NCBI GenBank assembly: GCA_964554805.1
Contig: CAZKPX010000002.1
Location: forward strand, 178,080-242,079
Source of the DNA: an uncultured Candidatus Saccharibacteria bacterium
GTDB lineage: Bacteria > Patescibacteriota > CAZHWT01
Direction: 5' to 3'
DNA length: 64,000 nucleotides
Program-made: the position numbers and the translations under genes
Notes under the pieces: model-generated
Databases searched by the model: none
Seen by the model: the letters and a program-made list of their open reading frames with translations, nothing else
What the model was told of the DNA's origin: nothing
In this document: positions 6,223 to 54,439 of the stretch, piece by piece
How the letters are laid out: each line of letters starts with the position of its first letter
Position numbering within the stretch: the first letter of the stretch is position 1

Positions 6223-6295
6223 ATTTGGCATATAGCGCACGACCTAAAAACTCCTCGATTGGAGGAGTTTTGATAGTGCTGTTGGGTTGGCAATC

Positions 6296-14107: not shown

Positions 14108-14126
14108 AAACCTAGTTGTTCGTTAC

Positions 14127-14164
14127 GCCCCGCACCAATTGGTGCGGGGCTATTTCATTTTTTA
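14127..14164 (+). terminator. Rho-independent terminator after the antiporter gene
   Basis: GC-rich hairpin GCCCCGCACC-AATT-GGTGCGGGGC, followed by TATTTCATTTTTT. Confidence 0.7.
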
Positions 14165-21187: not shown

Positions 21188-21250
21188 CTATTACCCTTAG
21201 TGATTAAACACACAAAGGCGCGCATTCTGATTGAGTGCGCGCCTGTTTGT

Positions 21251-23836
21251 TTAGTCGACTTTGAATTCAATCTGCTGATTATCTGCTAATTGGGCTGCAA
21301 CCGATTGGCCTGGTCCAATTTTCTGATCAATTATATCCATGGCTAACGGATCAAGGAGATGGCTTTGAATAACGCGCCGCAAGGGTCGAGCTCCATAGAT
21401 TGGGTCATAGCCTATCTTGGCCAGATACTCTTTGACTTGTGGGCTGATAGCGATATGAATATCGCGCTCGCGTAGTTGCTGTGATATTTGCTCAAGCTGC
21501 AGTTCGGTGATGGTATCCATATCCTCCGGTCTTAGGCGCTGAAAGACGATAATATCATCTAGGCGATTGACAAATTCTGGCTTAAAGTGCTGCCTGACCA
21601 CCGTCATAACCTGAGACGCTAATTGCTGTGTGGTATCACCTTGCCATTCTTGAATAATTTGACTCCCAAGATTAGAAGTCATGATAATTATGGTATTGCT
21701 GAAATTAACGACACGTCCTTGGCCATCTGTCAATCTTCCATCATCCAGCACTTGGAGGAGAGTATTGAATACTTCGGGATGGGCTTTTTCAACCTCGTCA
21801 AACAAGATAACGGCATAGGGTCGGCGACGAACACTTTCAGTGAGCTGCCCTCCTTGGTCATAGCCAACATATCCCGGAGGAGCTCCGATCAATCTAGAAA
21901 CTGCGTGCGCCTCCATATACTCGCTCATATCAATTCGAACCATGGCGTGCCGATCATTGAATAAAACTTGAGCTAAGGCTTTGGCTAACTCAGTTTTACC
22001 GACTCCTGTGGGTCCTAGGAACATAAATGACCCAAGTGGACGATTGGCAGCTGACAGGCCTGCCCGGGCCCTTCGAATGGCGTTGGCAACTGTTTTGACT
22101 GCATCGGCCTGCCCCACCACTCTTGATTGCAGCTCAGCCTCTAAATTAACTAATCGATGGCTCTCTTGCTCAATCAGCCGTGACACAGGAATGCCTGTCC
22201 ATTTATGAATAACCTTGGCTATATCTTCTTCGGTAACTTCTTGACGCAACAATCGACTCCCGGAATCCTGATTGGCTATCTTTTGGTTCAACTCTTCAAT
22301 TTGGTTGGTTAATACAGGGATTTTGCCATACCGAATCTCTGCAGCTACTGCCAAATCTCCTTGCCGCTCTGCCTGCTCCTCAGCAAAACGCAATTGATCC
22401 TGCTCTTCTTGCAGCTTTTGACTCTGGTCAATCAAATCCTTTTCTTGTCGCCATTGCTGTTCTAAGGCGCGCTTTTGCTCTGTTAGATTGGCAATATCCT
22501 GTTTAACATTTTCCAGTCGTGTCTTGGCCTGATTATCCTTTTCTGTTTTTAGAGCTTCTTGCTCCACCTCAAGGCGACGCACTCGACGAGTCAAGTTATC
22601 AAGCTCGGCCGGCATACTATCAATATCCATTTTTAGGCTTGAGGTTGCCTCGTCGATGAGATCGATAGCCTTGTCAGGCAAAAAGCGCTCCGGTATATAT
22701 CTACTGGATAATTTCACTGCAGCCACCAAGGCACTGTCCGTTATTCGAACTCCATGGTGAAGTTCATACTTCTCTTTTAAGCCCCTAAGAATAGTAATTG
22801 CATCTTCTACGGATGGTTCGCCAACATAGACTGGTTGGAAGCGGCGCTCTAAGGCGGCATCTTTTTCGAGGTGCTGGCGATATTCATTGAGGGTTGTAGC
22901 TCCGATTAAATGAAGCTTGCCCCTTGCCAGGAGCGGCTTGAGCATGTTGGCTGCATCAACCGCTCCTTCACTGGCGCCTGCTCCGACAATGGTATGAAGC
23001 TCGTCAATAAATAGTATTACTTGACCTTGAGCATCTTCCACTTCTTTCAAGACTGCCTTAAACCGTTCTTCAAATTCTCCTCGAAATTTTGCTCCAGCCA
23101 GCAATGAACCAATTTCAAGGGATATGAGTTTTTTATTGCGCAGCGTATCTGGCACGTCGCCGCTAATAATTCTTTGGGCGAGCCCCTCGACAATGGCAGT
23201 CTTACCTACTCCAGGCTCACCTATTAAGACGGGATTGTTTTTGGTTCTTCGTGTTAGAACCTGCATGGTTCGCCGTATCTCATCGTCTCGACCAACGACG
23301 GGGTCCAGTTTGCCGTCATTGGCTAGGGTGGTCAAATCTTGCCCATATTTCTGCAGAGCATTGTGAGTGTCCTCTGGGTTTGGGGTTGTAACATTCATTG
23401 GTCGAATTCCTTTCATCTGTTCTAAGAGTGAAGCCGAGGTGAGGAAGAATTGTTGTAAAAGACGAGTTAAGGCTGGGCAGTCAGCCAAACCAAGCAGCAG
23501 ATGCTCGGTGCTAAGATAGCTATCGCCCATGCTTGTCATGTAATTTTGAGCTGCTGTTACAACTGTCTGAATATCGGGCGAAGAAACAGGCATAGCCGCC
23601 TGGGCGGTCTTAACAGTTGGCAGTTTAGCCAATTCTAAATCAAGCTTTGCTATGAGACTTTGCCTATCGACCGACAAGCTATTCAGCAAAGGTTGTACGA
23701 CTGTACCATCTTGTTGCACTACGCTGTAAAGCAGGTGAGCAGCTTCAAGCTGCCCGTGGTGTAACCGTTGGGCTAGCTGAAGGCTATTTTGCAGGGCTTG
23801 AGCTGACTTGTGAGTAAATTGTTCAGGGCTAATCAT
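21251..23836 (-). CDS. clpB: ATP-dependent chaperone/disaggregase ClpB
   Basis: Two AAA+ modules ([15 protein letters not shown]; [15 protein letters not shown]) flank the long coiled-coil M-domain. Length is 861 aa. A TTGACA-18-TATAGT promoter ends 5 nt before the ATG. Confidence 0.95.
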
Positions 23837-23854
23837 GACTAAACTATACGGTAA

Positions 23855-23881
23855 TTGTCAGTCGTATGTCAAGAGTGCCAA
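23855..23881. promoter_or_regulatory. CIRCE-like imperfect dyad (TTGTCAGTC-N9-GAGTGCCAA) overlapping the clpB -35
   Basis: It matches the CIRCE consensus TTAGCACTC-N9-GAGTGCTAA at 14 of 18 positions with the exact 9-nt spacer. It sits immediately upstream of the heat-shock gene clpB. Confidence 0.35.
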
Positions 23882-24264: not shown

Positions 24265-24969
24265 CTATTCTCCGAACTGTACACCGAATTCTTGCACCCA
24301 AAAATTAGGAGAACCAGCCTTAAAGCCAACTCCGAGTTCTTTGGCTTTGTCGCTCAAAATATTGGCCCGATGAGATTCAGAATTCATCCAAGCAGCCACG
24401 ACTTCTTCAACTGATTGCTGGCCTTGACCTATATTCTCCCCCATCCAGCGCCAGTTAGTGTATCCCGCCTGTTCGTTTCGGTGTTTAAAGGTTTGACCAT
24501 CCGGGCTGGTATGGCTAAAAAATTTTTGGGATGACATCTGTTGGGCATATGCTTGGGCGGATTTTGACAGCTGCTGATTGAGCGATAGACTGCCCAGCTG
24601 ATTTTGACGCCGGATCGCATTGACCCTACTAAGCATTTCCTCGGCAAACTTAGGATTATTGGTGGCTGGGGGAGGGTTTTGAGGTTGATCGATCGGTTTT
24701 ACGGTGAGCTGTGCAGGCTGGGTATTTTGGGCTGCAGGCGGAGCCTCAGTCGTCGTCTTCTGTAAAGGCTCCAAAATGAAGCTCGGTATAAAACTTTGCA
24801 GTAGTGGGCTCAGGGTTAAGCCGGTTGTTTGCTGAGGCTGCACAGATGACTCTTCTTTGCTTGATAAGAACCACCAGGCATGCGTAGGGCTGGCGGTGGA
24901 CAATAGGAATAAAAGAATCAAGCTAAAACAAACGGTCTTAGCTGCCCAGTTGCGAATAGATATGGACAT
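24265..24969 (-). CDS. Secreted CAP/SCP/PR-1 domain protein
   Basis: A signal/TM N-terminus and a Pro/Gln-rich linker are followed by a C-terminal CAP domain (GHYTQVVW-like GYTNWRWMGENIGQG...SESHRANIL). Confidence 0.75.
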   Translation of the reverse strand: MSISIRNWAAKTVCFSLILLFLLSTASPTHAWWFLSSKEESSVQPQQTTGLTLSPLLQSFIPSFILEPLQKTTTEAPPAAQNTQPAQLTVKPIDQPQNPPPATNNPKFAEEMLSRVNAIRRQNQLGSLSLNQQLSKSAQAYAQQMSSQKFFSHTSPDGQTFKHRNEQAGYTNWRWMGENIGQGQQSVEEVVAAWMNSESHRANILSDKAKELGVGFKAGSPNFWVQEFGVQFGE

Positions 24970-25117
24970 ATTATATATAAGTTAGCATAGTTTCGATGCA
25001 TCTAGCAATAATTTCTTATCAGGGATAGTATCTGTTTCTTGCTGTTACTAAAGCAATTATTATCAACTAATTCAGTAGAGTGCTGATAAGTACTTTGATG
25101 ATAATCAAATCAGGCAA

Positions 25118-29295: not shown

Positions 29296-31662
29296 CTAAT
29301 TTAAGACAGGACTACCTACGGATTTGTTGCCTGAACGCGCCTTGAGCGGTTTGGTCAGAGCATGGCTTAGGACTTGATCAATATGATCGACAAAGTGCAA
29401 CTGAACTTTTTTTAGCACTTCCGCTGGGATATCATCCTTGTCGACTTCATTAGATTTGGGCAGTAGGATAGTCGTGATACCAGCTCTTTCTGCAGCCATG
29501 ACTTTTTCTTTAACTCCACCAATCTTCATAACGCGTCCTCGCAAGGTGATTTCACCGGTCATGGCTAAGTCTTTGCGCACAGGAATACCTGTTAGGGCAG
29601 AGGTTATAGCCGTTGTCATGGCTACGCCAGCCGAAGGACCATCTTTTGGTATGGCACCGGCTGGGACATGGACGTGAATGTCCTTCTGTAGTGCTTTTGT
29701 ATCAATACCCAGGCTGTCAGCGTGGGAGCGGGCATAGGACAGAGCCGCATGGACTGACTCTTTCATCACATCGCCTAATTGACCGGTTAATTGAAGATTT
29801 CCCTTTCCATTAAAGAGAGTTGCTTCGACAGATAAGACCTCGCCCCCAACTGGAGTAACTGCCAGTCCCGCTACTAGTCCCACCTGGTCCTCAGTCTCTT
29901 TGGTCCACTTATCGACTTTGGATGGTCCCAAATACTTACCTACTTGAGGAATGCCTAGTTGACCAGGCGCCTGATCACCTTCTGCCACCTGCTTGGCCAC
30001 CTTTCGGGCAATGGCAGATAGCTGTCTTTCAAGATCTCGCACTCCTGATTCATGGGTGTAATGTTCGATTAAATGCTCAAGGGCACTGTCTGATAGATCA
30101 AATTGCTCTGCTTTTAAGCCGCTGGCGTCACGAACTTTATCGAGTAAGTGATCTTTGGCAATATGGAGCTTTTCTTTGGCCGTATAGCTAGGGAAGTTGA
30201 TGATCTCCATACGATCTCGGAGCGGGCCGGGGATGTTTTCCAAAACATTGGCCGTGGCGATAAAGAGCACATCTGATAGATCGTAGGGAACCTCAAGATA
30301 GTGGTCAGCAAAAGCAAAGTTTTGTTCTGGGTCCAAAGCTTCTAATAAGGCAGATGATGGATCGCCACGGAAATCTGAGCCCACCTTGTCAATCTCATCT
30401 AGCAAGAAAACGGGATTGCTCGATTTCGCCTGATTGATGCCCTGAATTATTCGGCCAGGCATGGCGCCGACATAGGTCCGACGATGACCACGAATCTCGG
30501 CTTCATCATGGACTCCACCTAGGCTGATTTTGACAAACTTACGATCAAGCGATTTAGCAATAGACCGCGCGATAGAAGTTTTACCAACTCCGGGAGGGCC
30601 CGCAAAGACCAGAATAGGTCCGCGAATTTTTCCAGTCAACTGATGAACTGCTAAGTATTCAAGAATACGATCTTTAACTTTGGGTAAGCCATAATGGTCG
30701 GCGTCAAGCTGCTGCTGAGCCTGTTTTAGGTCGACTTTCGACTTGGACTTATCGCCCCATGGCAATGAAGCAATTAAGTCTAGGTAATTTCTGATATAGC
30801 CTACCTCGGGGCTCATAGAAGGCATGGACTTGAGCCGGTTCAGCTCTTTGGTGGCTTTTTCGGCTACTTCCTTAGGCAACTTCTTGGCCTTGAGCTGTTT
30901 TTCTAAGTCTTCAAGGTCGCCGCCCTCACCTTCACCGAGCTCGCGCTGAATAGTTTTCATCTGCTCTCGAAGATAGACTTCCTTTTGCATCTTGGTCAGC
31001 TCTTCTTGAGTCTGTGAGTTTAGTTGTTGCTCCAATTCGGCAACATGCAGCTCTTGGGCCAATAATAGATTGGTTTTGGTTAATCTTTCACCAAGATCAA
31101 TTTCTTCCAGAATTTGTTGCTTCTGCTTGTGATCATTGCCAACTTGCGAGGCTATTAGATCGACTAAACGATGCGCAGATCCGGTAGAAAGTATATTAAT
31201 CAAGACTTGCATATCGAAATCACGCCGTAGGGAGACGTACGTCTTGAGTTGATTGGTCAGATTGTTTTTTAAGGCTAAAATTTCGTCTGTTTCAGACTCA
31301 ACTGCCGATAGCTTGCGGGCATCTACTCGGAAATAGTCATTATCGAGATTATACTTGGTGATCTCGACTCTCGCCAATCCCTCGGCCACCACCTTAACAT
31401 CGCTATCTGACCGCAAAACCTGGCGAATTATGCCTAGGGTTCCTATCTGATATAAATCTTCTGGCTCCACTTCTTCCTTATCCGGGTCCTTTTGTCCTAC
31501 AAAAATGACCAGATTATTGGCTTGTAGCGCTTCATCAATGGCTAGTCGGGTTAATCGCCTACCAAAAGCCAGCCCGGTGTGGGTTCCAGGAAAAATAATT
31601 ACGTCTTTTAGTGGCAATAGGGGAATATTTTCTAACTTAGGCTCTGATACTACGATATCCAT
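29296..31662 (-). CDS. lon: ATP-dependent Lon protease (LonA)
   Basis: It has a LON N-domain, an AAA+ module ([15 protein letters not shown]) and the S16 protease domain with the catalytic Ser ([14 protein letters not shown]). Length is 788 aa. An AAGGA SD lies upstream. Confidence 0.95.
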
Positions 31663-31741: not shown

Positions 31742-31768
31742 TCTAGCAAAGTATGACATAGAGTGCTA
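31742..31768. promoter_or_regulatory. CIRCE-like half-conserved dyad upstream of lon (CTAGCAAAG-N9-GAGTGCTAA)
   Basis: The right half-site matches the CIRCE consensus exactly with a 9-nt spacer, and the left half is degenerate. It shares TTRGCACTCT...TGWCATAC with the clpB and 39180 elements. Confidence 0.3.
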
Positions 31769-31796
31769 AATAGGTCAAGAGGTAAATGACACCAAT

Positions 31797-35036: not shown

Positions 35037-35139
35037 CTGCTTACGGTGTAAGCCTAGCCCTCATTCTCTTTAAGCATAAAACGCCCTTCCGTTAGGATGT
35101 AGGGCGTTTTATTTAGGCTATTTAGTTAATTTACTGCTA

Positions 35140-37371: not shown

Positions 37372-39078
37372 ATGACTGCCCCATTTTTTTCTTCTTTTCC
37401 GAAACCTGAAATTGCATATTTTTGCGCCGAGTTTGCTTTAAGCGACGATTTGCCTATTTATTCTGGTGGACTAGGCGTATTGGCGGGCGACGTTGTTCGG
37501 CAGGCGGCTGATGATGCTATGCCGATGGTGGCAATTGGCCTGTTTTATCACCAGGGGTATTTTGAACAAGGAGTTGACACCGAAGGTCGCCAGCAACACA
37601 ATTACCAAACCATCGATCCGATCAAGGCAGGTCTCAGCTTGCTTACAGACGTTAACAACAGGCCGGTTATTGTTAGCATTCCCTATGCCAACGAACTGCT
37701 TTTTGCCCAGGTATGGCATATTTCTCTGGGCACGGTTCGCATCTATCTGCTTGACTCAAACACAGAACTTAATTCAGAAGATCGCCGTCTGATCACGCAG
37801 CACCTATATAACCCAGAACCTATGATTCGTATCGCCCAAGAGATGCTGCTTGGCATAGGTGGCGTTAAATTGCTTCGTCAGCTTCAGTTTTCACCTAAGG
37901 TTTATCATCTCAACGAGGGCCATTCGGCGTTTGCTAACTACGAGTTGGCATGGGAATTGATGGCTACTCAAGGATATACTTTTGACCAGGCTCGTCAAAT
38001 TGCCAGAAAGCAATTAGTTTTTACCAATCATACAATTGTTGCTGCTGGAAATGATGTCTTTCCTCGTCACCTCATTTCATCTCAGCTAGCCACCTATGCT
38101 GAAGCTCAGGATTTGCCGCTAGATGAAATGCTTGATGCGGCCCAGGATAGTCAATCAGACAATAGCTTTAGTATGACTATTTTAGCCTTAAATAGTAGCC
38201 ACATCGCCAATACTGTCAGTCAGCTCCACTATCAAGCCGCAAAGCATGTCTGGCCTGACTACTCATTTAGTTCGGTTACTAATGGCGTGCATCTGCCCAC
38301 CTGGGTTGAACCTTCTATTGTGAAGGCAAGCCAAGGCCTATCTATTCAAGGACTATCAGAGCTCTCGGATCAGGATTTGTGGCAACTTCATCAAACCAAC
38401 AAGTCCAATATGCTGCGATATATTTCTGACCAGACAGGCACTGAGTTGTCTAGCGAGGTGCTCACTGTCGTTTGGGCGCGTCGATTTGCTGCTTACAAGA
38501 GGCCTAACTTAGTTCTCCAAGACATTGAATGTCTTAAACAGCTGGCACAGGAAAAACAGCTTCAAATCTTATTTGCAGGCAAGGCTCACCCCAAAGACAG
38601 CGTCGGACAGGCAATTTTTTCGGAGATTCATCGGCTTGTCCGTTTGCATGGCCTGGAAGAATCTGTGGTGATTGTGCCCAATTACAGAATGGGTATGGCC
38701 AAGGTTCTTGAGTCTGGAGCTGATATTTGGCTTAATACGCCTATTCGCGGCCAAGAAGCGAGCGGCACAAGTGGCATGAAGGCCGGCGCGAATGGCGCTC
38801 TTCATTTATCTACCTCTGATGGGTGGATGGATGAGGTTGACTGGAAGGACATAGGCTGGATATTGCCTGACAGCAACACTGCGGAGGCTCTTTTTGAAAC
38901 ACTAAAACAGGAGATTATGCCTCTGTATTACAATTCGACAGCTGACCAGCCTGTTTCTGAGTGGTTTCATCGAATGAGACTGACAATGTCTATCTCTTGG
39001 CAGCAGTTTTCTGCCGCTCGAATGCTATCTGAGTATCGTCAAAAACTCTATCAGCCAATTATTGACACTTTGCCATAA
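37372..39078 (+). CDS. Alpha-glucan phosphorylase (GT35, short archaeal/bacterial type)
   Basis: It has the PLP-Lys motif EASGTSGMK and the GT35 core. The 568-aa length is the 'alpha-glucan family phosphorylase' type. Confidence 0.85.
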   Translation: MTAPFFSSFPKPEIAYFCAEFALSDDLPIYSGGLGVLAGDVVRQAADDAMPMVAIGLFYHQGYFEQGVDTEGRQQHNYQTIDPIKAGLSLLTDVNNRPVIVSIPYANELLFAQVWHISLGTVRIYLLDSNTELNSEDRRLITQHLYNPEPMIRIAQEMLLGIGGVKLLRQLQFSPKVYHLNEGHSAFANYELAWELMATQGYTFDQARQIARKQLVFTNHTIVAAGNDVFPRHLISSQLATYAEAQDLPLDEMLDAAQDSQSDNSFSMTILALNSSHIANTVSQLHYQAAKHVWPDYSFSSVTNGVHLPTWVEPSIVKASQGLSIQGLSELSDQDLWQLHQTNKSNMLRYISDQTGTELSSEVLTVVWARRFAAYKRPNLVLQDIECLKQLAQEKQLQILFAGKAHPKDSVGQAIFSEIHRLVRLHGLEESVVIVPNYRMGMAKVLESGADIWLNTPIRGQEASGTSGMKAGANGALHLSTSDGWMDEVDWKDIGWILPDSNTAEALFETLKQEIMPLYYNSTADQPVSEWFHRMRLTMSISWQQFSAARMLSEYRQKLYQPIIDTLP

Positions 39079-39179
39079 CAGCCTATATTGTTATCAATCA
39101 TGCTTGCTTATGTGCTAGAAGAATACAGCTCTTGGATGATGGCCATATGTTGATCTATCTCAGATAAACTACATACCTG

Positions 39180-39206
39180 TTATCACTCTGTCATACGGAG
39201 TGATAA
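39180..39206. promoter_or_regulatory. Perfect 9-9-9 dyad TTATCACTC-TGTCATACG-GAGTGATAA (CIRCE-like) in a convergent intergenic spacer
   Basis: A perfect inverted repeat with a 9-nt spacer, one mismatch per arm relative to the CIRCE consensus TTAGCACTC-N9-GAGTGCTAA. It is AT-rich, so it is a poor terminator. Confidence 0.4.
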
Positions 39207-39252
39207 GATATTAGACCTATAGTCGTTTTATAGACCTCTATTCTTGCTCTTA

Positions 39253-40653
39253 CTACTCTCCATTATCTGAGCTGGCTACGGGCGCAATCTTGGCGACTGC
39301 GCTCAATATGGCTGCTGCTGCCCAGGCTTGAGTTTTGCTGGCTGTTTGTCCATGAGGAGCACGATAGTCGGTGTAGTTTTGATCATAGACATAGAGCTCG
39401 ACCGCATGCTGGTAATGACTGATCGCTTTAAGCATAGCTACTCGAACTAGGTCGGCTTCATCTTGATAGCCATAGTTGTCAAATCCTTGAGCTATCATGC
39501 TATTGTCATGAGGCCATATAGAGCCATTATGATAACTATTGGCTTGATAATGACTGGATTTGGTGCTGAGCGTGCGGATTCCAGCCATTGGTTCGAACAT
39601 ATCTGGAGACAGCAGCTGCTTGACGATGTCATCAACGCAATTGATATTGACGATACCATCCATCTGACCATCTTCGTCCTGATTTAAGCTTGCCCACAAA
39701 CAATGACCAATAGATGAACGTATATTTTTTATTTTGCGCCCCTGGCCATCAATGCCGGAAGCGAGGGTATATCGAGATCCTTCTATCACATAATGACGAT
39801 TAAAATCTTCCTTTAACTGACCTGCTCTTCGCTCTAACAAGCTAGATATGGTTGAATGATGTGGTTGGTGTTGGTTCTGCGAAAAGTAATTGGACCATAA
39901 GCGCAACCCTAAATAGGTATAGGCTTGCGCTTCAACGGGGGCGATGGGGTGCGGAACTGGCTGCTGATCCTCATGGAACGTAGATTCACTACTGTCCATC
40001 CAATTTTGATTTTGCAGCCCACCAAAGGTGCGCCGAGGATTGAGCTGATAGTCGATGAATCCATCTCCATTGCTATCTCCATACCAAAATATCCAATGGA
40101 TGGCAGCCTGGACGCTAGGAATAATCTGGTCAACGAATTGCTGGTCAAGTAGATTATTGGCGTGAGCTATCTGATGATAGCGATAGGCGGTAATGAGAAA
40201 AAGTGGCGTAGCGTCAACAGTATCGTAATTACGCATAGCTTGATCGGGATATATATACCAGGCTTTTTCATGACCATTTAGGCCACCCATTGAAGTTAGG
40301 TGCTCGTGTTTGTCTGGCCGATACTCATGAATTATCTTACCGGGTTCTTCCCCGCTCTCAATATTAAGGTTCTGGCCTTGCAATTGTGCCATGGTCAGCA
40401 ATACCTTGCGCACGATATTTAAGAACTTGGCATCTTTGGTAATCTGATAGACCTTTAAAAGTTGCAAACTGGTAATTAATGAATCCCGACCGAATATACA
40501 GCCAAATAACTCATTGCGAGCCGAGGCTAAAATACCGGTTTCGGTTTCCAGCTCATTTATAGCTTGGTAACCTAACCTCCACAGAAAATCCCAGTTTGTA
40601 TTGACATCTGTGTTGTTGATTAATGATTGGGGTGATGATTGAGGTTGTGGCAT
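39253..40653 (-). CDS. Amylo-alpha-1,6-glucosidase / glycogen-debranching-enzyme-like glycoside hydrolase
   Basis: An (alpha/alpha)6-barrel GDE_C-type sequence (...GDSNGDGFIDY..., ...QGFDNYGY...). It is adjacent to the phosphorylase and GT4 genes. Confidence 0.65.
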   Translation of the reverse strand: MPQPQSSPQSLINNTDVNTNWDFLWRLGYQAINELETETGILASARNELFGCIFGRDSLITSLQLLKVYQITKDAKFLNIVRKVLLTMAQLQGQNLNIESGEEPGKIIHEYRPDKHEHLTSMGGLNGHEKAWYIYPDQAMRNYDTVDATPLFLITAYRYHQIAHANNLLDQQFVDQIIPSVQAAIHWIFWYGDSNGDGFIDYQLNPRRTFGGLQNQNWMDSSESTFHEDQQPVPHPIAPVEAQAYTYLGLRLWSNYFSQNQHQPHHSTISSLLERRAGQLKEDFNRHYVIEGSRYTLASGIDGQGRKIKNIRSSIGHCLWASLNQDEDGQMDGIVNINCVDDIVKQLLSPDMFEPMAGIRTLSTKSSHYQANSYHNGSIWPHDNSMIAQGFDNYGYQDEADLVRVAMLKAISHYQHAVELYVYDQNYTDYRAPHGQTASKTQAWAAAAILSAVAKIAPVASSDNGE

Positions 40654-40739
40654 AAGAGGGGCAATCTATATCATGACAACAGCATGCAGGCTCAATTGCT
40701 CCAATGAGCGCTACTCTGCTATGGTGTTGCGGTGCTATT

Positions 40740-41837
40740 TTAAGCACTCAGCGGCAAACTGTTGGCCGACGCCTTGGCTGTGCGCGATCTCGGCTTACGC
40801 TGCTGAATGATTGACTGGTATATCTGTTCATACCCCTTAGCCATTCGATGGGCATTAAAGTTTTCTAATGCATGACGCCGACATTCCCGGCGATCAATGA
40901 GGTCTATTGATGTGACAGCTTCAACCATTTCTTCAGTGTCTTCTACAACAAAACCCGTTTTGCCTTGCAAAACTAGCTCTCGGATAGAGCCGCGCCCAAA
41001 GGCAACGATAGGACAGCCACAGGCCATCGCTTCGATAAGTGTTAGTCCAAATGGCTCGCGGAAGCTGACAGGGTGTAAAAAGACCTTGGCTTTGGACATC
41101 AACTGATTGCGTTGATCTGTATCGACTTCACCGATCCACTTAATTTTTTGTCCGTCCAGTCGTGGCTCTACATACTCCTTAAAGTACTGGACATCAGGCC
41201 GATGATTCAATTCTAGTTTTGCAGCAATTATGAGCGGCATATTGAGGTATTGAGCCACTTCAATTGCATGGTGCACCCCTTTTTCTTCAGAGATCCTGCC
41301 GACAAACAGCAGATAGCCGTCATGCTGATCGCTAAATGGATAATCTTCCATCGGCAGCCCGTTATAGACTACCCCGGCTATAGGCAAGTGAGGCACTGGC
41401 TTGACTTGTCCTTGAGAGATAGCAACCAAATGGACTCGATCAGCCACTGCTTCAAAGAGCTTGCGGTTGCTGGTTGAGAATGGTCCATGCAGTGTACTCA
41501 CAACTGGGGTTGGGCTGACAACACCTGCTAGCATACCTGCGCTATTGGTATGCTCATGAATAATGTCAAACTCATCAGCATGCTTAAAGGCATTGACTAG
41601 GTTTAAGGTTGTGTAATCATTCATTCCGTAGACATTCTTTATTTTGCTGACGCGCAGTGAGCTAGGAACTACCGATTCAAGTTTGGCGGAGGTAACTGAA
41701 TCGCCGCTGGCAAAGAGGGTTACTTTATGACCCATCTCAACAAGCTCTTCAACAAGAGCATGCACCATTCGTTCAATTCCTCCATATAGTTGAGGTGGAA
41801 CACTTTCAATTGGATTAACAATTTGGGCTATTCTCAT
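40740..41837 (-). CDS. Glycosyltransferase family 4 (glycogen/alpha-glucan synthase-like)
   Basis: A GT-B fold with the EX7E-type C-terminal motif (FLHPVSFREPFGLTLIEAMACGCPIVAF). The start is set at the MRIAQI Met, with AAGGAG 6 nt upstream. The ORF-track start at 41855 lies inside the SD. Confidence 0.75.
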   Translation of the reverse strand: MRIAQIVNPIESVPPQLYGGIERMVHALVEELVEMGHKVTLFASGDSVTSAKLESVVPSSLRVSKIKNVYGMNDYTTLNLVNAFKHADEFDIIHEHTNSAGMLAGVVSPTPVVSTLHGPFSTSNRKLFEAVADRVHLVAISQGQVKPVPHLPIAGVVYNGLPMEDYPFSDQHDGYLLFVGRISEEKGVHHAIEVAQYLNMPLIIAAKLELNHRPDVQYFKEYVEPRLDGQKIKWIGEVDTDQRNQLMSKAKVFLHPVSFREPFGLTLIEAMACGCPIVAFGRGSIRELVLQGKTGFVVEDTEEMVEAVTSIDLIDRRECRRHALENFNAHRMAKGYEQIYQSIIQQRKPRSRTAKASANSLPLSA

Positions 41838-41950
41838 ATATATATCTCCTTTCATACTATACAGTATGGTTGTATCTTTACATTATCATATGATAGTATG
41901 TTAATGCAACTAACCGTTGTCAGGTACGCGACTACAGAAAGGATGTATGC

Positions 41951-43141
41951 ATGAAGATATTACAAATAGCACCTCCATGGATTGGTATCCCTCCCCAGAA
42001 TTACGGAGGCACAGAGTGGATAATATCCAACCTCATTAATGAGCTGCACCGCAATGGTCATGACGTGACGTTGTTCGGTACGGGGAATAGCCAGACTCCG
42101 GCAACATTGAAGTATGTTTATGAAACTGGTCTGTTCGAACAAAACGATGCCGAATGGTCATTGATGCAACCAGCCTTAGCTTTGCCGGCATTAGTTCATT
42201 ACGACCAGGCATTTAAGGAAGCGGCGACCGGTCAATACGATATAGTGCATGCTCATCTATCTGCAGGGACTGATCTGATGAAGCTGAAGTTTTTGTCGGA
42301 ATTAAAAGTACCTTATATTGCTACAACGCATATGATATTCCCCTTTGATAAATGGTCAAACAAGGATGATGAGTATATAAAATACTATGCTAAAAATATT
42401 AAGCTAGTCTTTATTAGTGAAACACAGTCAGCGCTCTATCCTGATGATTTTAATAAGCTAGGAATTGTCCACAATAGCCTTGATTTGAGCTTGCACACAT
42501 TTCAGTCAAGACCTGCGGGTCGCGAGGGTCGCCCATACCTGACCTGGCTGGGGAAGATTATGCCGTGGAAGGGTCTAGATGTGGCAATCGAGGTAGCTAA
42601 GGCTACTGACCAGCGATTAGTATTTGCAGGCGTTCTGGACGAGACTAATCATCCCGAATCAATGGTCTACTTTAAAGAGAAGATTGAACCCCACATTGAT
42701 GGAGATCAGATTCAGTATCTCGGTCCAGCTAATTTGGCTCTCAAGAATGAACTGTTGGGCAATGCTTCGGCTTTTCTCAACCCCATTTCCTGGTCCGAGC
42801 CGTTTGGGATGGTGGTGATTGAAGCAATGGCTTGCGGCACACCGGTCATATCATTTGCCCGTGGTGGTGCGACAGAGATTGTTCGTCATGGTAATAATGG
42901 CCTGCTGGTTAATGACACCGACCAGATGATTGAAGCGGTGTCAGGCATAGATACTATTGATCGACTCCAGTGTCGTCAGTCGGTTGAAGAACGATTCTCC
43001 GCTCAAGCCATGACTAATAAATACGTAGAGCTCTACACGACAAGTCGGTCCATGCACGGTCTTACATCCACCTATTCTGTCGATAATCAGACCAGATCGC
43101 AGCTCAATTTTCTTGATCTGGAGCCTCAGCTGGCAAGGTAG
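41951..43141 (+). CDS. Glycosyltransferase family 4
   Basis: A GT-B fold (FLNPISWSEPFGMVVIEAMACGTPVISF). An AAGGA SD lies 8 nt upstream. It is divergent from the other GT4. Confidence 0.75.
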   Translation: MKILQIAPPWIGIPPQNYGGTEWIISNLINELHRNGHDVTLFGTGNSQTPATLKYVYETGLFEQNDAEWSLMQPALALPALVHYDQAFKEAATGQYDIVHAHLSAGTDLMKLKFLSELKVPYIATTHMIFPFDKWSNKDDEYIKYYAKNIKLVFISETQSALYPDDFNKLGIVHNSLDLSLHTFQSRPAGREGRPYLTWLGKIMPWKGLDVAIEVAKATDQRLVFAGVLDETNHPESMVYFKEKIEPHIDGDQIQYLGPANLALKNELLGNASAFLNPISWSEPFGMVVIEAMACGTPVISFARGGATEIVRHGNNGLLVNDTDQMIEAVSGIDTIDRLQCRQSVEERFSAQAMTNKYVELYTTSRSMHGLTSTYSVDNQTRSQLNFLDLEPQLAR

Positions 43142-43742
43142 GAAACAGAACTCCTCTGGCTTTTCGGATGAGGACTATTGCCACCAGAACCACGCTAACA
43201 GTTATGGCCATCATTAAGAGTTTATTGCTCAGTAGGTCATACACAAGCTCAGCAATATTCTCCCCTAGGTAAAACCCAGCCAAAAGGTATATTGTGGACC
43301 AGACGATGGTGGTGGGAATGACAGTGTAGATAAACTTGAGGTACGGCATGTTAAGAATGCCGGCCGCAATGGTTCCCAGAATACGAGCTCCTGGAGTAAA
43401 TCTAGCAATAACTAAAAACCATACTCCATGGTTATTCATGGCTATTTCTAGCTGCTTGATTGTGCGAGGGGTTATTTTGAGATGCTTGAGAATATTCTGA
43501 TACTTGTAAATAAGGTGTGTGCCAAATTTTCTGGAAATCACATACAGTAGCGTTGATCCGAGAAACGTGGCTAGTGTGACACCTGCAATAACAGCAACTA
43601 TCTGCCATGGCTGCAAATCCCCTTTAAAGCCGACAAAAAACAATAGTGTGCCGCTTGATATAAGGAGAGGTATGCCCGCCTCTTCGATGAGCATATGAAA
43701 GAATGTAACAAGGATAGGGTTGTCTAAGACAAGCTGCAGCAT
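43104..43742 (-). CDS. DedA family membrane protein (second copy)
   Basis: It has the DedA signature (IEEAGIPLLISSGTLLF...FTPGARILGTIAAG). Its 3' end overlaps the convergent GT4 by 38 nt. Confidence 0.8.
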   Translation of the reverse strand: MLQLVLDNPILVTFFHMLIEEAGIPLLISSGTLLFFVGFKGDLQPWQIVAVIAGVTLATFLGSTLLYVISRKFGTHLIYKYQNILKHLKITPRTIKQLEIAMNNHGVWFLVIARFTPGARILGTIAAGILNMPYLKFIYTVIPTTIVWSTIYLLAGFYLGENIAELVYDLLSNKLLMMAITVSVVLVAIVLIRKARGVLFPTLPAEAPDQEN

Positions 43743-44299
43743 ATGGGTAGTATTCCAGAATTAATAGAATGTGACAAGGTGTTCAAATAGCAGCCCCAGA
43801 ATAGAAATGCTGGTATCTATGGCTTCTAGGTCGAGTATTTTGGAGAAATCTGACTTGATGTTGCTATTATCGAGCCATTCTTTTTCTTTGGCCTGTGCTT
43901 GTTGCTTAAAACCGTGCGTTATAAAAGTAGACGGGTAAAGCCAACAACTGCGCCCAAAGCCATCAGATCATTGACTTGAATTGATTGCCAGACTACAGCT
44001 GCCAGAATGACAGACACAACAGCATAAAACCAGCCGCTATGCTTTTGGATAAAAAACCCTCGCAGGCAAACCCTATATTTTTATGATCGATAAATAACCA
44101 ATGGAGGAATAAAAAGACCATAAATATTCCACCACCGACCAATAAGATGGGCGTAGACTGTTGGATCGAGTCCAGAGCCTGCTCATCACCAGTCAAGGTA
44201 GCCGTCCGTGAGCCGAATAGTCCGAGGAGGATTCAACGCCCATGCAATTACCAGCGGCAGTAAACCTCTCACACCACATACAGCAATAGGAATATAGCG
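43743..44299 (-). pseudogene. Probable degraded membrane-protein gene (DedA-like N-terminal remnants with frameshifts or stops)
   Basis: A 557-bp stretch with no intact ORF. Minus-strand frames give broken hydrophobic fragments (EAIDTSISILGLLFEHLVTFY*, ...ILLGLFGSRTATLTGDEQ...LLVGGGIFMVFLFLHWLF...) resembling the DedA N-terminus (LVLDNPILVTFFHMLIEE). Confidence 0.3.
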
Positions 44300-54328: not shown

Positions 54329-54439
54329 AGAAGGAGATAGGATCCGCCTCCGCCAGGTGGCGGATGGCGGAAGGATTTAGAGAAATTAGGGTCAAGAGTC
54401 GGGCAGCCCGGGTGGAATTACTTCCAACCGGGCTGATTG

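Follow-up and report, generated by a model that had tools for sequence, protein, structure and literature searches.

Candidate HrcA operators in the clpB and lon promoters of a Saccharibacteria-like bacterium, and a possible orphan CIRCE copy between two convergent genes

In Bacillus subtilis, the class I heat shock genes groESL and hrcA-grpE-dnaK-dnaJ carry CIRCE, the operator of the HrcA repressor, which has the consensus TTAGCACTC-N9-GAGTGCTAA. For the Mollicutes, one report places clpB and lon in the HrcA regulon and describes functional CIRCE elements with at most two mismatches (PMC5138195). For Saccharibacteria, Patescibacteria, and the candidate phyla radiation, the literature that we searched contained no description of regulation by HrcA and CIRCE. 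Here we describe three CIRCE-like dyads in a 64-kb stretch of DNA (the window, meaning the whole stretch that was analysed; 45 to 48% G+C) from a bacterium of a Saccharibacteria-like lineage. Two of them immediately precede clpB and lon, the only two heat shock genes in the window, and the third lies between two convergent genes. The reading that we favour, with moderate confidence, is that the clpB and lon dyads are HrcA/CIRCE operators situated in promoters and that the third dyad is a young orphan copy without a gene to control.

Three CIRCE-like dyads in the window

Each 27-mer of the 64-kb window was scored against the 18 positions of the CIRCE consensus, and the chance expectation was taken from 100 first-order Markov shuffles. 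A sequence-only reading of this DNA, made before our analysis, had allowed for a motif frequency equal to random. Instead, exactly three dyads in the window score 14/18 or more, where the shuffles gave 0.24, namely, the perfect dyad between the convergent genes (16/18) and the dyads upstream of clpB and lon (14/18 each). At 16/18 or more the expectation was 0.00, and in a separate shuffle test the perfect dyad was the only site in the window with three mismatches or fewer to CIRCE (0.05 expected). We also considered a 13/18 dyad at 25060-25086 (TCAGCACTC-TACTGAATT-AGTTGATAA in gene orientation), 90 nt upstream of a gene for a secreted CAP-domain protein (24265-24969, minus strand), as a fourth operator. 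We treat it as a product of chance, which it probably is, as 2.3 dyads are expected at 13/18 or more and the region is absent from the related locus L047, where the counterpart intergenic region measures only 14 nt.

The repressor and the classical target genes were searched for with Pfam on about 29 open reading frames (ORFs) of the window and with tblastn, for which the queries were B. subtilis and E. coli reference sequences and eight HrcA ORFs from metagenome loci. Neither hrcA nor groES, groEL, dnaK, grpE, dnaJ, or hsp20 was found in the 64-kb window or in about 279 kb of loci from the same clade, and exact-protein matches reaching about 2 kb beyond the ends of the window revealed no chaperone genes there. 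We infer HrcA as the binding protein in this genome from the sequence of the dyads, from their positions, and from the association of the same arms with hrcA in metagenomes that is described below.

Candidate operators upstream of clpB and lon

The clpB gene (21251-23836, minus strand) encodes a protein of 861 aa with the Pfam domains AAA_2, ClpB_D2-small, and Clp_N. Its dyad, at 23855-23881 on the minus strand, lies 19 nt upstream of the ATG (23836) and reads TTGGCACTC-TTGACATAC-GACTGACAA in gene orientation, or TTGTCAGTC GTATGTCAA GAGTGCCAA on the plus strand. The -35 hexamer TTGACA (23872-23867) makes up the first six bases between the two arms, the -10 hexamer TATAGT is found at 23848-23843, and the right arm of the dyad fills the promoter spacer. 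This promoter, TTGACA-18-TATAGT, matches the consensus at 11/12 positions and is the joint best in 20 kb. The clpB mRNA is probably leaderless, because the ATG begins 6 nt past the -10 hexamer. A spacing of 6 to 7 nt without a Shine-Dalgarno sequence is seen in all three species in which clpB could be compared (23834-23848 in the window, about 18400-18422 in L047, and about 22140-22160 in L049), and several CPR-like hrcA and clpB genes in metagenome loci also begin 0 to 30 nt past a dyad.

The lon gene (29296-31662, minus strand; 788 aa; Pfam Lon_C, LON_substr_bdg, and AAA) has its dyad at 31743-31769 on the minus strand, 80 nt upstream of the ATG (31662). In gene orientation it reads TTAGCACTC-TATGTCATA-CTTTGCTAG (CTAGCAAAG TATGACATA GAGTGCTAA on the plus strand), with one arm perfect and the other matching at 5/9 positions. 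The lon promoter consists of TTGACC (31778-31773) and CATACT (31755-31750), 17 nt apart, with a TG extension before the -10 hexamer. The left arm of the dyad is inside the promoter spacer, the -10 hexamer spans the junction of the dyad spacer with the right arm, and this arm covers the start region. The sequence-only reading had pointed to related elements in front of both genes, and both are real; it gave the exact coordinates for clpB, whereas for lon its register of 31742-31768 has to be corrected to the one given here.

The same reading had proposed that all three dyads share TTRKCACTCT..TGWCATAC, and this is true only in part. Within the window, the strict form CACTCT-N0-2-TGWCATAC is confined to the clpB and lon sites (0.00 expected), but the perfect dyad fits it only when the two halves are allowed to overlap by one base. 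Moreover, TGWCATAC corresponds to the -10 hexamer (CATACT) at lon and to the -35 hexamer (TTGACA) at clpB. It is therefore not one homologous motif, and the idea of a single spacer motif common to all dyads has to be given up. Common descent of the three dyads as a repeat family was likewise rejected, as there is no similarity beyond the arms and the promoter hexamers.

Both sites were compared with their counterparts in four related lon loci of about 20 kb each (L003, L047, L048, and L049), of which L047 and L049 also contain clpB. In public assemblies, the Lon proteins of this clade are 74 to 85% identical, and the next ones, at about 55%, belong to Levybacteria, Microgenomates, and Saccharimonadales. 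The closest Lon among species-representative genomes, with 75% identity, is that of a MAG named "uncultured Candidatus Saccharibacteria" (L003). In every related locus, the top CIRCE-like dyads are those upstream of lon (14 to 15/18) and, in L047 and L049, clpB (15/18). With the window included, the lon site is kept in 5/5 species and the clpB site in 3/3. At lon, the block CTTGAC..TTAGCACTCT.T...ATACT.TGC.AG is invariant across the five species, in contrast to the diverging flanks (mean column identity, 52%), and the promoter has the form TTGACn-17-(C/T)ATACT, with the TG extension in the window. At clpB, the block T..CACTCTT.ACA....ACTG..AA is invariant across the three species in an alignment with a mean column identity of 64%, and the sites read TTATCACTC-N9-TACTGCTAA in L047 and CTATCACTC-N9-GACTGCTAA in L049. 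The promoter hexamers alone account for part of the conservation at both sites, but the invariant arm bases of the lon site occupy the spacer between the -35 and -10 hexamers, which is normally unconstrained. The earlier view of the two elements as CIRCE-type operators is thus strengthened by their place among the top-scoring dyads of the window and of every related locus and by their conservation within promoter regions that have otherwise diverged.

In Woesebacteria and other Patescibacteria loci, CIRCE-like dyads likewise closely precede lon, and in one Lachnospiraceae locus a perfect CIRCE lies upstream of this gene. In six loci (L008, L020, L021, L023, L024, and L032), which are labelled Patescibacteria except for two labelled Gammaproteobacteria (L008 and L024), the right arm upstream of lon is GACTGCTAA and not GAGTGCTAA. 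The right arm of the clpB site is GACTGCTAA in L049, TACTGCTAA in L047, and GACTGACAA in the window. A C-for-G change in the operator may be typical of the lineage.

Taken together, the best interpretation of the dyads at clpB and lon is that they are HrcA operators, and their conservation argues that they are functional despite four mismatches to the consensus in each. According to this model, the heat shock repressor HrcA would control clpB and lon through its DNA sites, which are operators of the CIRCE type. Since these operators would be embedded in the sigma-70-type core promoters of the two genes, a bound repressor dimer would be expected to occlude RNA polymerase. Heat or protein-folding stress would then release the repressor, and clpB and lon would be induced.

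The perfect dyad between two convergent genes

The third dyad, TTATCACTC-TGTCATACG-GAGTGATAA, occupies 39180-39206 and has no strand of its own. It is a 9-9-9 dyad whose arms are perfect reverse complements of each other, and each arm differs from the consensus TTAGCACTC/GAGTGCTAA by one mismatch (16/18 in total), so that it is a CIRCE variant with T for G at arm position 4. It is situated in a gap of 174 nt, 101 nt after the end of an alpha-glucan phosphorylase-like gene (37372-39078, plus strand; Pfam PF00343, with the name taken from the sources of its homologues) and 46 nt before the end of a gene that, according to Pfam, encodes a GDE_C/MGH1-like glycoside hydrolase (39253-40653, minus strand; here called GDE). 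The perfect inverted repeat with CIRCE spacing, the single mismatch per arm, and the location between convergent genes are all as the sequence-only reading had described them. The dyad is therefore not in the promoter of a heat shock or protein-quality-control gene, as its neighbours are two convergent genes of glycan metabolism.

A scan of metagenomes for the exact arms TTATCACTC-N9-GAGTGATAA returned at least 120 loci, and the genes near them were determined by tblastn with chaperone queries and with ClpB and Lon of the window. Among the matches listed, groES (44 loci), hrcA (28), clpB (16), or dnaK (5) lies downstream in 93/120 (78%), and in these 93 loci the dyad is -1 to 279 nt from the gene start, with a median of 48. 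Also among the matches listed, Hsp20 was found at one further locus, and in 9 of the other 27 loci the sequence ends within 150 nt of the dyad. Two layouts recur. In one, the promoter is immediately upstream and its -10 hexamer abuts the left arm; in the other, the -35 hexamer TTGACA lies in the spacer and the -10 hexamer is past the right arm. Because a chaperone gene or hrcA starts downstream in so large a share of the matches listed, the T-for-G arm variant is, as judged from gene context, a widely used operator form in uncultured bacteria, and the suggestion that the perfect dyad may be a protein-binding site has become credible.

Two further observations were made in these metagenome data. 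There is a subfamily of the exact dyad with the near-constant spacer CAAGCCCAA or its complement, with members in IMG/VR (L053, L054, and L056-L058) and in metagenomes (L111, L120, and L126). The contigs that carry it have about 47% G+C, and its members fall within ORFs and have no chaperone gene in their vicinity; the subfamily looks like conserved coding sequence of a virus-like element and not like an operator. The HrcA-like ORFs that accompany the T variant in CPR-like contigs (L064, L097, L101, L110, L135, and others) are short, with 224 to 261 aa from stop to stop versus about 340 aa in Bacillus, and tblastn often splits them into an N-terminal and a C-terminal piece.

None of the six related loci with either of the flanking genes (L050, L051, L052, L179, L180, and L183) has the perfect dyad. 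In the first three of these, SHMT is the direct convergent neighbour of the phosphorylase gene, and the whole block 39253-43742, of which GDE is the first gene, is missing, with no dyad. L179, whose GDE is 78% identical, has the same pair of GDE and phosphorylase genes, again with no dyad, and shows a half-site, AAGTGATAG, where the window has GAGTGATAA. The GDE homologues of L180 and L183 have different neighbours and no dyad. Only L001 and L002 carry it, and these are taken to be the same species as the window because their GDE protein is identical. We found no support for the possibility that the dyad is a relic brought in from beside a chaperone gene together with the block of GDE and glycosyltransferase genes, as neither a chaperone gene nor a dyad is present 3' of GDE in L179, L180, or L183.

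The block itself consists of four genes, for the GDE_C/MGH1-like hydrolase, two GT4 glycosyltransferases, and a VTT-domain protein; it is partly present in L179, and at its far end there is a non-coding stretch of 557 nt (43743-44299). Downstream of the phosphorylase gene, two short elements are common to three species in intergenic DNA that is otherwise unalignable (39100-39109 and 39156-39166 in the window, 7681-7853 in L050, and 11372-11517 in L179). The first is a decamer, ATGCTTGCTT (ATGCTTGCT in one copy of L179), that occurs twice, in direct orientation, in both L050 and L179, and the second is an 11-nt palindrome, TATCTsAGATA.

In the reading that we favour, the perfect dyad is probably an orphan HrcA site of recent origin, confined to one species, that may also serve as a weak 3' hairpin. 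It would have arisen in a fast-changing intergenic region, in which L179 has only the half-site AAGTGATAG, and the repressor of the clpB and lon sites would be expected to recognise it as well. Locally, the only effect that seems plausible is that of the sole weak hairpin, or of a roadblock, at the 3' ends of the two convergent genes. One finding goes against this explanation, as a perfect 18/18 inverted repeat is not what one expects of a neutral relic; it suggests either a very recent origin or some selection.

The perfect dyad could also be mainly an RNA element, a bidirectional 3' hairpin that serves as a terminator or 3'-end stabiliser and whose likeness to CIRCE is incidental or exapted. 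We regard this as unlikely, but it is the alternative that survives best. Each of the five other intergenic regions between convergent genes of the window has a single strong hairpin of -20 to -28 kcal/mol (6231-6280, 14126-14151, 21216-21244, 35071-35120, and 54343-54371). These are of the bidirectional terminator type, with a G+C-rich stem and mostly an adjoining A/T run, and the genome therefore uses conventional intrinsic terminators. The perfect dyad is the sole hairpin in its own intergenic region (-15.2 to -16.6 kcal/mol), its stem on the plus strand reaches 12 pairs around a 3-nt loop (-15.3 kcal/mol, z = -4.1), and L050 carries a GC-rich hairpin at the equivalent place. However, the 9-bp arms form only three G-C pairs, no T-run is present on either side (the tails are GATATTAGACC on the plus strand and CAGGTATGTAG on the minus strand), and a terminator scan of 38800-39500 found nothing; the combination of a G+C-rich stem and a U-tract that marks Rho-independent terminators is absent here. 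Because it has no U-tract and is AT-rich, the dyad would be a weak terminator at best, which agrees with the opinion of the sequence-only reading that so AT-rich a palindrome makes a poor one. In addition, L179 has the same gene pair without an equivalent hairpin, and a hairpin does not need arms that match CIRCE at 8/9 positions with a gap of exactly 9 nt, given that the calculated probability for a random 9-mer arm to match at 8/9 or more is about 1e-4.

Less probable still is that HrcA acts through the perfect dyad on an active promoter that gives rise to an antisense or non-coding RNA. One such promoter, on the minus strand, would consist of ATGACA (39194-39189, in the dyad spacer) and TAGTTT (39171-39166), 17 nt apart, and could start a transcript near 39159 that is antisense to the 3' end of the phosphorylase gene. 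The order of CGT-ATGACA, GAGTGATAA, 8 nt, and TAGTTT, with the -35 hexamer at the end of the spacer and the -10 hexamer eight nt past the right arm, is the same as in the hrcA promoter of L077, and a -35 hexamer in the spacer is also found in the operators of L089, L072, L108, and L121. The two hexamers, however, match the consensus at only 8/12 positions (39166-39194 as a whole) and fail the criteria of the promoter scan. On the plus strand, TTGACA-16-TATATT at 39062-39089 scores 11/12, overlaps the stop codon of the phosphorylase gene, and lies about 90 nt upstream of the dyad, which would then be part of the transcript. Against this, there is no ORF downstream of this site, no -35 or -10 hexamer on the plus strand is in register with the dyad, and the putative 131-nt plus-strand RNA over the dyad folds no better than shuffled sequences (z = -0.34). 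The spacing of TTGACA and TATATT is lost in L179, and both the dyad and the promoter spacing are unconserved in L179 and L050. As the promoter scan beside the dyad passed nothing on either strand, no ORF near the dyad exceeds 22 aa (the nearby maximum is elsewhere given as 21 to 23 aa), and no Rfam family was matched in a scan of the whole window, the idea that the dyad marks an unannotated small transcript finds no backing.

We think it very unlikely that the perfect dyad has been put to use as an HrcA-bound roadblock, a conditional 3'-end element, or a decoy. As a roadblock, it would be occupied by the repressor at normal temperature and would stop read-through and antisense transcription, in a region without an ordinary terminator, until heat shock frees it. 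As a decoy, it would act as a buffer for unbound HrcA in a genome where operators are very few. If either were true, it would mean that CIRCE is used outside promoters. The least credible proposal is that all three dyads are due to chance or to promoter constraints and that no repressor binds them, for example, because the lineage has lost hrcA: although the failure to find hrcA in the window and in the clade loci, the four mismatches at clpB and lon, and the share of the promoter hexamers in the conservation would fit, the number of dyads in excess of the shuffles, with two of them at the only heat shock genes, their return as top dyads at lon and, where present, clpB in each of four relatives, the invariance of arm bases between the -35 and -10 hexamers in five species, and the chaperone genes and hrcA beside the same arm variant in the metagenome matches listed all argue against it.

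Comparison with known systems

If our favoured reading of promoter operators and an orphan copy is correct, the HrcA/CIRCE circuit would extend into the candidate phyla radiation, to a Saccharibacteria-like lineage, and this appears to be undescribed in the literature that we searched. HrcA and CIRCE themselves are known, as is the membership of clpB and lon from the Mollicutes, and our understanding of how the system works is unchanged. New is the documentation of the T-for-G arm variant as a form that seems to be widely used in uncultured bacteria. There is also a caution for the motif-based prediction of regulons, as a perfect palindrome may turn out to be a young orphan, and the genuine operators, those under conservation, would be the ones that look "degenerate" and are merged with promoter hexamers.

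Compared to the CIRCE/HrcA system of B. subtilis, the sites in the window have the same 9-bp inverted repeat with a 9-bp spacer and match 14 to 16 of the 18 consensus positions, and those of clpB and lon are at or overlap the core promoter of protein-quality-control genes. There are also clear differences. The putative targets are clpB and lon, and groE and dnaK are not in the window; the perfect dyad and the clpB sites of the relatives have T for G at position 4; the right arms at clpB have GACTG for GAGTG; the right arm at lon is weak; and the perfect dyad is a copy outside any promoter. Like a bidirectional intrinsic terminator, the perfect dyad can form a hairpin midway between two convergent stop codons and is the only one there, but it is AT-rich, has no flanking A/T tracts, reaches about -15 kcal/mol versus -20 to -28 kcal/mol, and has operator sequence in its arms.

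The Mollicutes offer the closest parallel. The window belongs to the Patescibacteria, a different phylum, and its candidate operators are described here from their sequence. Given the limit of two mismatches reported for the Mollicutes, the four-mismatch sites of clpB and lon would be unusually degenerate if they are functional. The two systems would have in common a small genome and HrcA-type operators over clpB and lon, some of which are degenerate (PMC5138195), and the reduced genome studied here would thus, as in the Mollicutes, have placed both clpB and lon under an HrcA-type repressor.
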